Below, piece after piece: positions 7,644 to 8,564 of a stretch of 24,982 nucleotides of DNA; within the stretch, counting starts at the first letter, position 1; each line of letters begins with the position of its first letter. The position numbers were made by a program, and so were the translations under genes. The notes below the pieces were generated by a model. It did no database searches and had not been told where the DNA came from. It saw only the letters and a list, made by a program, of their open reading frames with translations. The stretch lies in the IMG/VR virus record IMGVR_UViG_2551306526_000003; one strand, given 5' to 3'. The stretch comes from a virus. Its lineage: Duplodnaviria; Heunggongvirae; Uroviricota; Caudoviricetes.

Positions 7644-8320
7644 CGCCATTGCTCCCCAAATACAAAACCAATTTCAGCCAGTGCCTCGTCCATTTTTTCG
7701 ATGAACTCCGGCACCATCTCGTCAAAACTCGCCATGTACTTTTCATTCCGCTCAATCACGACATAATGCAGGCCTTCACGCTTCATGCGCGGGTCATAGT
7801 TGGCAAAGTACCAGGCATCTTTTCGCGTCACCCACATGCTGTACTGCACCTGGGCCATGTAAGCCGATTTTATTGCCTCGAAACCACCGAGCCGGAATTT
7901 CATGAAATCCCGGGAGGTAAACGGGCATTTCAGTTCAAGGCCGTTGCCGTCACTGCATAAACCATCGGGAGAGCAGGCGGTGCGCATATTTTCGTCGCGA
8001 TAGATGATCGGGGATTCAGTAATATTCACGCCGGAAGTGAATTCAAACAGGGTTCTGGCGTCGTTCTCGTACTGTTTTCCCCAGGCCAGCGCCTTAGCAT
8101 TAACTTCCGGAGCCACACCGGTGCAAACCTCAGCCAGCAGGGTGTGGAAGTAGGACATTTTCATGTCAGGCCACTTCTTTCCTGAGCGGGGCTTTGCTAT
8201 CACGTTGTGAACTTCTGAAGCGGTGATGACGCCGAGCCGTAATTTGTGCCATGCATCATCCCCCTGTTCGACAGCTCTCACGTCGATCCCGGTACGCTGC
8301 AGGATAATGTCCGGTGTCAT
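7640..8320 (-). CDS. exo: Lambda exonuclease (Red alpha), 226 aa, intact
   Basis: [54 protein letters not shown]... matches lambda Exo full length. Confidence 0.95.
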
Positions 8321-8564
8321 GCTGCCACCTTCTGCTCAGTGGCTTTCTGTTTAAGGAATCCAAGAGCTTTCACTGCTTCGGCCTGTGTCAGTTCTGACGA
8401 TGCGCGAATGTCGCGGCGAAATATCTGGGAACAGAGCGGCAATAAGTCGTCATCCCATGTTTTATCCAGGGCGATCAGCAGAGTGTTAATCTCCTGCATG
8501 GTTTCATCGTTAAGGGGGGTAGTGAATGCTTTTGCTTGATCTCAGTTTCAGTATTAATATCCAT
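8317..8564 (-). pseudogene. bet-gam deletion remnant: last about 64 codons of bet (...[67 protein letters not shown]) joined at about 8513-8520 to the first about 15 codons of gam (ATGGATATTAATACTGAAACTGAGATCAAGCAAAAGCATTCACTA)
   Basis: Bet C-terminus and gam 5' end are both recognisable and abut at a C-rich tract; about 1 kb of bet and gam is missing relative to lambda. Confidence 0.75.

Follow-up and report, generated by a model that had tools for sequence, protein, structure and literature searches.

The window, by which we mean the whole stretch of 24,982 nucleotides that was analysed, carries between positions 7640 and 9619 a group of early-left genes that lie on the minus strand in the order known from phage lambda: ral, ea10, cIII, kil, a piece of gam, a piece of bet and exo. 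The ral gene (9419..9619; Pfam Ral, E=7e-48) is intact and is the last of the early-left genes before the next deletion junction. It is followed by ea10 (8868..9236; Pfam DUF2528, E=8e-47) and by cIII (8631..8795), which encodes 54 amino acids and matches Pfam Lambda_CIII with E=1.5e-30; these two genes are intact as well. The kil gene (8510..8662) encodes a protein of 50 amino acids, in which residues 1-47 are identical to lambda Kil and are followed by YPP. It matches Pfam Lambda_Kil (PF06301) with E=2.5e-20 and is recorded as WP_000372938.1 in Escherichia coli APEC O78.

At the far end of the group lies exo (7640..8320, minus strand), which encodes 226 amino acids, matches Pfam YqaJ with E=2.9e-29 and is annotated in APEC O78 as a lambda exonuclease family protein (WP_000186798.1). 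The protein differs at five residues from lambda Exo and at one from the Exo of Escherichia phage 2G7b (NC_049954), and the residues R28, D109, E129 and K131 are all kept. By family (lambda Exo/YqaJ) and by catalytic residues, the 5'-3' exonuclease of the lambda Red system is thus encoded in the window. An earlier, sequence-only reading of this DNA had called exo intact, and in this it was right.

Beyond ral, the window is homologous to lambda and to 2G7b only as far as 9730, which is short of sieB and N. Here the plus strand (9725..9946) carries a quuD-type Q antiterminator gene of which only the C-terminal half is left; the fragment covers only positions 56-118 of the Phage_antitermQ profile and is called a pseudogene by PGAP. 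A second deletion has fused this fragment near 9730 to the region upstream of ral, with the loss of sieB, N, pL, the immunity region, O, P and nin. Antisense to the fragment, and upstream of ral, there is a promoter-like site on the minus strand (9812-9783) with GTGACA, an 18-nt spacer and TATAAT, amounting to 11 of 12 consensus matches, which could give ral, and possibly the genes downstream of it, some transcription after the loss of pL. Three terminator-like hairpins lie on the minus (coding) strand upstream of kil, at 9997-9980, 9284-9263 and 8844-8825. The first and strongly terminator-like of these follows an intact porin gene of the OmpC/NmpC/Lc type (10135-11217, minus strand, 360 amino acids). 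The porin gene has the Q fragment on one side and the lysis genes on the other and shares its strand with the block from ral to exo; amid the general erosion of the prophage it is a moron gene that has been retained.

Over a length of 20.6 kb the window matches APEC O78 at 99.985% identity, three single-base indels being the only differences. In APEC O78 the left part of the locus runs from int and xis through IS2, the early-left accessory genes, exo, the Bet pseudogene, kil, cIII, ea10 and ral to the Q fragment, and the right part comprises an OmpC-like porin gene, lysis genes, bor, the small terminase gene, a truncated large terminase gene fused to a truncated gene for the tail-tip protein J, lom and a tail fibre gene. 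The annotation of this identical locus contains no N, pL, rex, cI, cro, cII, O, P, nin or intact Q, and no head or tail-shaft genes. The site is the lambda attachment site; ybhC adjoins the locus in APEC O78 and the right flank, ybhB-bioA, is visible in the genome of Eco_23-3571. With an attachment site, pseudogenes and an IS element, and with no genes for immunity, replication or the virion, the element is a cryptic (defective) prophage.

The bet-gam junction and what remains on either side

We aligned window 7600-8900 by BLAST with lambda and with 2G7b, the nearest intact relative found, and in both comparisons exactly 960 bp are absent from the window. The alignment with lambda consists of two collinear segments with a 2-nt overlap, in which window 7600-8513 corresponds to lambda 31308-32221 and window 8512-8900 to lambda 33180-33568. 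The deleted sequence comprises codons 1-196 of Bet and most of codon 197, the spacer between bet and gam, and gam from codon 18 to its stop. The sequence-only reading had proposed an internal bet-gam deletion of about 1 kb, to be checked by alignment with lambda, that joins some 15 codons of gam to some 64 codons of bet; the alignment gives the size exactly, and the alignments with lambda and 2G7b agree with its coordinates, the 15 gam codons being followed by a run of six G. There are 392 matching phage records, and all of the best 30 of these match the 1,301-bp query in two pieces that extend over about 2,261 bp. The junction occurs in none of these best 30 of 392, in which an identical allele would rank first, and an intact bet-gam region is therefore the normal state.

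The joint itself (8512..8513) is marked by 2 nt of microhomology, AA on the plus strand and TT on the minus strand, which is shared by the bet and gam sides and is apparent both from the overlap of the BLAST segments and from the parental sequences set side by side. On the bet side the parental sequence reads …CATCGTTAA and then, beyond the breakpoint, CCGGAG…; on the gam side, as represented by 2G7b, it reads …ACAGGGAA and then GGGGGGTAGTG…; across the joint the window reads …CATCGTTAAGGGGGGTAGTG…. Homology of 2 nt or more is expected at about 16% of random joints, and no in-register homology that is longer than 2 nt, or imperfect, was found at the breakpoints.

Next to the shared bases lies a run of six G on the plus strand, or six C on the minus strand (8514..8519), which takes up gam codons 16-17 and, in the kil frame, codons 49-50 together with the third base of codon 48. 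The run was inherited from the parent and had no part in the joint, because the intact phage 2G7b already carries the same GGGGGGTAGTG (in the longer context GGGAAGGGGGGTAGTG) where lambda has GGGGGTTAGTG. The suggestion of the sequence-only reading that the microhomology lay in this C-rich tract is not borne out: the only shared bases are the AA/TT at 8512-8513, and the run adjoins them without being part of them. Judged by its bases, the joint is an apparent short-homology or homology-independent illegitimate deletion that adjoins an inherited homopolymer.

What is left of gam (8514..8564, minus strand) is codons 1-17 of the long form of the protein, MDINTETEIKQKHSLPP, of which the last two prolines are encoded by the homopolymer run. 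Past codon 17 the frame continues through 12 out-of-frame codons of bet and then meets a stop, which makes 29 codons in total. The short Gam form of 98 amino acids (GamS), which is what the annotation of 2G7b calls gam, lies wholly inside the deleted segment, and the RecBCD inhibitor of the lambda Red system is absent from the window.

The bet remnant (8317..8513, minus strand) holds the last 64 codons and the stop (…NDETMQEINT…), corresponds to Bet residues 198-261 and aligns with lambda 32025-32221. In lambda Bet the domain that binds and anneals DNA comprises residues 1-177, and the crystal structure has an ordered domain from Thr-195, a bundle of three helices to which both Exo and SSB bind (PMC6393309). 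Because only residues 198-261 are kept, the N-terminal domain for DNA binding and oligomerisation is missing, the single-strand annealing function of the Red system is gone and a near-exact Exo-binding module is left. A Pfam search gave no match for the remnant, and its only PDB matches are to crystallised chains of the Bet C-terminal domain (6m9k_D and 8tfu_A, E about 1e-38), which identifies it as the C-terminal three-helix bundle that binds Exo and SSB. We treat the coincidence of its start with the domain boundary as chance. The bet stop overlaps the exo start (ATGA) as it does in lambda. With only Bet 198-261 and gam codons 1-17 left, the earlier statement that the window has neither a Bet annealase nor Gam stands.

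Within the bet remnant an in-frame ORF of 60 amino acids (8317..8499, minus strand) opens at the ATG of Bet Met-202 (8499-8497), 10 nt past the kil stop, and no recognisable Shine-Dalgarno sequence was seen ahead of this ATG on inspection. The exact product is called on 469 public contigs, one of which labels it 'Bet protein [Escherichia coli APEC O78]'. Other C-terminal fragments of Bet (P0033, P0034) are common in public E. coli assemblies. A fusion of 101 amino acids on 315 contigs, in which MLCCEATY is joined to IYDKDEAER…, indicates an independent N-terminal truncation of bet in another prophage lineage, and a second fragment, of 79 amino acids and found on 355 contigs, carries the word 'partial' in the name given by its source and may only be cut by the end of a contig.

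The deletion also touches the end of kil. Lambda Kil has 47 amino acids, ends in …SIH and is stopped by TAA. In 2G7b the codon at this position is TAC and Kil extends to …SIHYPPSLFS, giving a protein of 54 amino acids that is found on at least 1,000 contigs. The window has a Kil that is stopped after YPP by a TAA (8512-8510) supplied by the GTTAAC of bet, and the exact 50-amino acid protein occurs on 991 public contigs. Compared with its likely parent the protein has lost four residues, the extension of seven being cut to three, and compared with lambda it has three extra. The sequence-only reading held that Kil acquired the tail …SIHYPP through the deletion, as its normal stop lay at the junction. 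The C-terminus is indeed unlike that of lambda, but the tail was not created by the deletion: intact relatives already have TAC and the 54-amino acid Kil, and the site of the lambda TAA precedes the junction by three codons.

A survey of Kil homologues found proteins with no tail and proteins with the tails YPPSLFS, YPPFLFS, SPPFLFS and YSPFLFS, together with frameshifted forms of 81-83 amino acids that imply other lengths of the run. The C/G run at the end of kil (gam codons 16-17; Kil homologues P0046-P0051) varies in length and sequence among E. coli prophages, leading to Kil tails of 0 or 7 residues or to the frameshifted forms, and this variation touches only the long form of Gam and not GamS. 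The C-terminal extension of Kil is thus a polymorphism that is common in nature, and the deletion did not give rise to it. The essential helix-turn-helix core of Kil is formed by residues 4-38, the protein stays active without its C-terminal 11 residues, and an RSSK motif has been implicated (PMC11762379). The Kil encoded in the window has both the core and the RSSK motif of this FtsZ/ZipA-dependent division inhibitor as far as its sequence can tell, and no functional change would be expected.

Distribution of the junction and of further deletions

Of 5,426 complete E. coli genomes, 21 contain the 241 bp centred on the joint as an uninterrupted match with 100% identity. These comprise APEC O78, O78:H4 strains, ACN002 and others, come mostly from poultry (chickens and ducks) and include isolates from pig, dog and human; all 21 carry the same prophage. 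RefSeq/PGAP annotates at the locus a pseudogene, 'phage recombination protein Bet, missing N-terminus', beside the 50-amino acid Kil, so the deletion is already present in public annotation.

The prophage contains other junctions of the same kind. One joins ral to the Q fragment at about 9730, with sieB through to the N-terminal half of Q removed, and another joins the terminase gene to J at about 16810, and has cost the prophage every head and tail gene from the large terminase up to J; each is present in 22 complete genomes. With these two junctions as markers, no ancestral copy with intact bet-gam was found among complete genomes, and the only extra genomes were TD225-C4 and Eco_23-3571, which are more eroded. 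In TD225-C4 (NZ_CP035860.1) the whole stretch that starts inside int and reaches the kil end is gone; Eco_23-3571 has lost int to essD and carries IS2 in rrrD. These larger, nested deletions imply that the erosion is ongoing.

Single-base differences are also present in the window. At 7489-7499 a run of nine C is followed by AC, and all 21 genomes with the junction are one base shorter at this place, 19 of them as in APEC O78 (C9 then A) and two differing further; the corresponding sequence is CCCCTCG in lambda and C8 followed by G in 2G7b. The extra base at 7499 fuses DUF1317 (orf60a) and DUF1382 (orf63) into an ORF of 118 amino acids (7293-7649, minus strand). It was found in no complete RefSeq genome searched, and the allele is a private variant or a sequencing error. 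A single-base indel relative to APEC O78 lies at 3223 in the IS2 transposase region, and at 19401 a difference of A6 against A5 splits a tail fibre gene of 1,101 amino acids into ORFs at 18468-19409 and 18871-21780.

Probable neutral erosion of a cryptic prophage, and the alternatives

The bet-gam scar is very probably one of several in a cryptic lambda-like prophage at att-lambda that is undergoing neutral, stepwise erosion. The prophage, lying between ybhC and ybhB/bioA, would have been inherited vertically in an APEC O78-type, poultry-associated lineage of E. coli, in which the 960 bp would have been lost at one stroke, by illegitimate recombination between sites that share only 2 nt. The deletion has taken away the Bet annealing domain and all of functional Gam and has left the frames of exo, kil, cIII, ea10 and ral intact. 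As pL, N, the immunity region and the replication region appear to have been lost as well, there would probably be little transcription of the early-left genes, or none. The pL promoter and antitermination by N, on which expression of the lambda Red system depends, are not available to this prophage, and the loss of pL and N, together with the three hairpins upstream, suggests that transcription of kil and exo is probably minimal. With so little transcription the bet-gam deletion would be effectively neutral, and exo would simply be a gene that has not yet been hit. Independent N-terminal truncations of Bet, such as the 101-amino acid fusion, exist elsewhere in public data.

Silence of the region is not the only reading of its signals, as the promoter-like site at 9812-9783 or read-through from the porin gene on the same strand may transcribe it. 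The intact frames of exo, kil, cIII, ea10 and ral could also reflect selection. Selection and drift on these frames are indistinguishable because divergence of the window from intact phages is low, at 3 substitutions in 1.3 kb, and too little time has passed.

This context changes how the locus should be viewed. The sequence-only reading had framed it as a remodelled Red/Kil system, a frame that does not fit an element which is cryptic and in which pL, N, cI, cro, O and P, an intact Q and the head and tail genes are all missing, so that neither recombineering nor Kil phenotypes are to be expected from the locus. Its description of exo as orphaned is correct insofar as the Bet annealase and Gam are missing, but the word means little in a prophage in which N, pL, the immunity and replication regions, most of Q and all head and tail genes are missing too.

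It is possible, though in our view unlikely, that the 3' end of kil with its C/G homopolymer is a deletion hotspot, for instance because replication pauses or slips at the run, which would account for the position of the junction right beside the G6 tract. A second deletion in the same lineage is relevant here. In TD225-C4 (10893-10952) the sequence from window 2066 to about 8519 is missing, again with 2 nt of microhomology, and the 47-amino acid lambda-type Kil is restored by the TAA of a GATTAAC in int, the stop codon, like that at the bet-gam joint, being borrowed from a (G/A)TTAAC. The ends of the two deletions flank the G6 run at a distance of 8 bp from each other, the TD225-C4 deletion keeping the sequence from 8520-8522 and the bet-gam deletion from 8512-8514, and the run itself is variable in length and sequence among prophages, as the Kil tails and the forms of 81-83 amino acids indicate. 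However, these are only two events, noticed post hoc and both with only 2 nt of microhomology, and fusion junctions are also found elsewhere inside kil (P0116, P0118, P0120, P0062). No third junction at the G6 run appeared in the survey of Kil C-terminal variants, which detects only events that alter the kil frame. The 8-bp proximity of the two breakpoints is a minor puzzle that hints at a non-random breakpoint, though we do not count it as evidence for one. Were clustering of breakpoints at the homopolymer general, it would give a small insight into where deletions of lambdoid prophages start.

Loss of gam may have a selective advantage of its own. Gam blocks RecBCD, and when a P2-type OLD defence is present in the cell this results in cell death, from which the classic escape is the loss of gam together with red. 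On these grounds the deletion might be an adaptive knockout of gam and bet, positively selected in a phage or a leaky prophage and not a case of neutral decay, which we consider quite improbable here. The deletion does remove the Bet annealase and all of functional Gam and leaves each of the adjacent frames unharmed, and Gam alone has been found to impair growth slightly and to trigger P2-OLD toxicity, which lambda without Gam evades (PMC12445682). Set against this, the prophage as it is observed has neither pL nor N, so that Gam would hardly be made, and the junction is confined to one clonal prophage lineage and seen in none of the best 30 of 392 phage records.

There is very little to commend the idea that the remnant is a domesticated mini-module, in which Kil and Exo are co-expressed with a separate Bet C-terminal domain that is translated through re-initiation 10 nt past the kil stop and binds Exo or host SSB. 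Bet residues 198-261 do come close to the ordered bundle from Thr-195 that was crystallised with lambda Exo and that also binds SSB (PMC6393309), the ATG of Met-202 is in frame at the required place, and the bet stop still overlaps the exo start. But no ribosome-binding site precedes Met-202, the operon has no known promoter after the loss of pL, and relatives have deleted the whole segment without obvious consequence; the domain boundary, moreover, lies by a flexible linker and is a broad target, which makes the coincidence a weak one. A reading that joins the two ideas, with a recurrent breakpoint at the homopolymer producing a kil-'bet-exo unit whose free 60-amino acid Bet peptide binds Exo or host SSB in a domesticated function, is equally hard to credit.

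That the joint is an assembly collapse or misassembly and that the real genome has full-length bet and gam, a danger raised by the sequence-only reading itself, can be rejected with near certainty: nothing was found in its favour, although three private single-base indels relative to APEC O78 betray an imperfect base-level quality, and against it stand 21 independently sequenced complete genomes with 100% identity over 241 bp, two proteins that exist only through the junction (the 50-amino acid Kil on 991 contigs and the 60-amino acid Bet ORF on 469), and the breakpoints themselves, which share no repeat of more than 2 nt through which an assembly could collapse.

Under stepwise neutral erosion, the reading that we prefer, the locus is a textbook case of prophage decay with little import beyond annotation. 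The bet-gam junction provides a clean clonal marker for one cryptic prophage lineage in APEC O78-type E. coli. The case also carries a caution, that functional remodelling should not be read into a scar once the promoter and the regulator of the operon have been lost.

Comparison with known systems

One of the closest known counterparts of the locus is the Red region of lambda (exo-bet-gam-kil-cIII, lambda 31348-33463). The order of the genes is the same, nucleotide identity is 97-98% on both sides of the gap, and exo, kil, cIII, ea10 and ral are present at full length in the window. Unlike lambda, the window has no counterpart of lambda 32222-33179 (with an ambiguity of 2 nt) and therefore neither the annealase domain nor Gam, its Kil is three residues longer, and pL and N, which drive the operon in lambda, are absent from the prophage. 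Phage 2G7b is nearer, being 99.8% identical to the window across the flanks and sharing with it the G6 run, the change of TAA to TAC at the lambda kil stop and, but for one residue, Exo. The difference is that 2G7b has complete bet and gam genes and a Kil of 54 amino acids ending in …HYPPSLFS, whereas the window is without the 960 bp and its Kil ends in …HYPP.

The laboratory deletions of red and gam in lambda (Spi- phages) resemble the present case in that one deletion removes both Red function and Gam. Spi- phages, however, are viable and are selected on P2 lysogens, whereas the carrier here is a non-inducible remnant. A further likeness is with the cryptic or 'grounded' lambdoid prophages of E. 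coli such as DLP12 and Rac, which are worn down by one deletion after another and by the insertion of IS elements, in keeping with the general concept of cryptic prophage decay (PMC6379469, PMC7744054). Like them, the window prophage has a fixed att site, an IS2 and several deletion junctions, has lost immunity, replication and morphogenesis, and has kept genes of the moron type, namely a porin gene, bor and lom. It does not differ from DLP12 and Rac in kind; it is another prophage, at another site (att-lambda), in another lineage.
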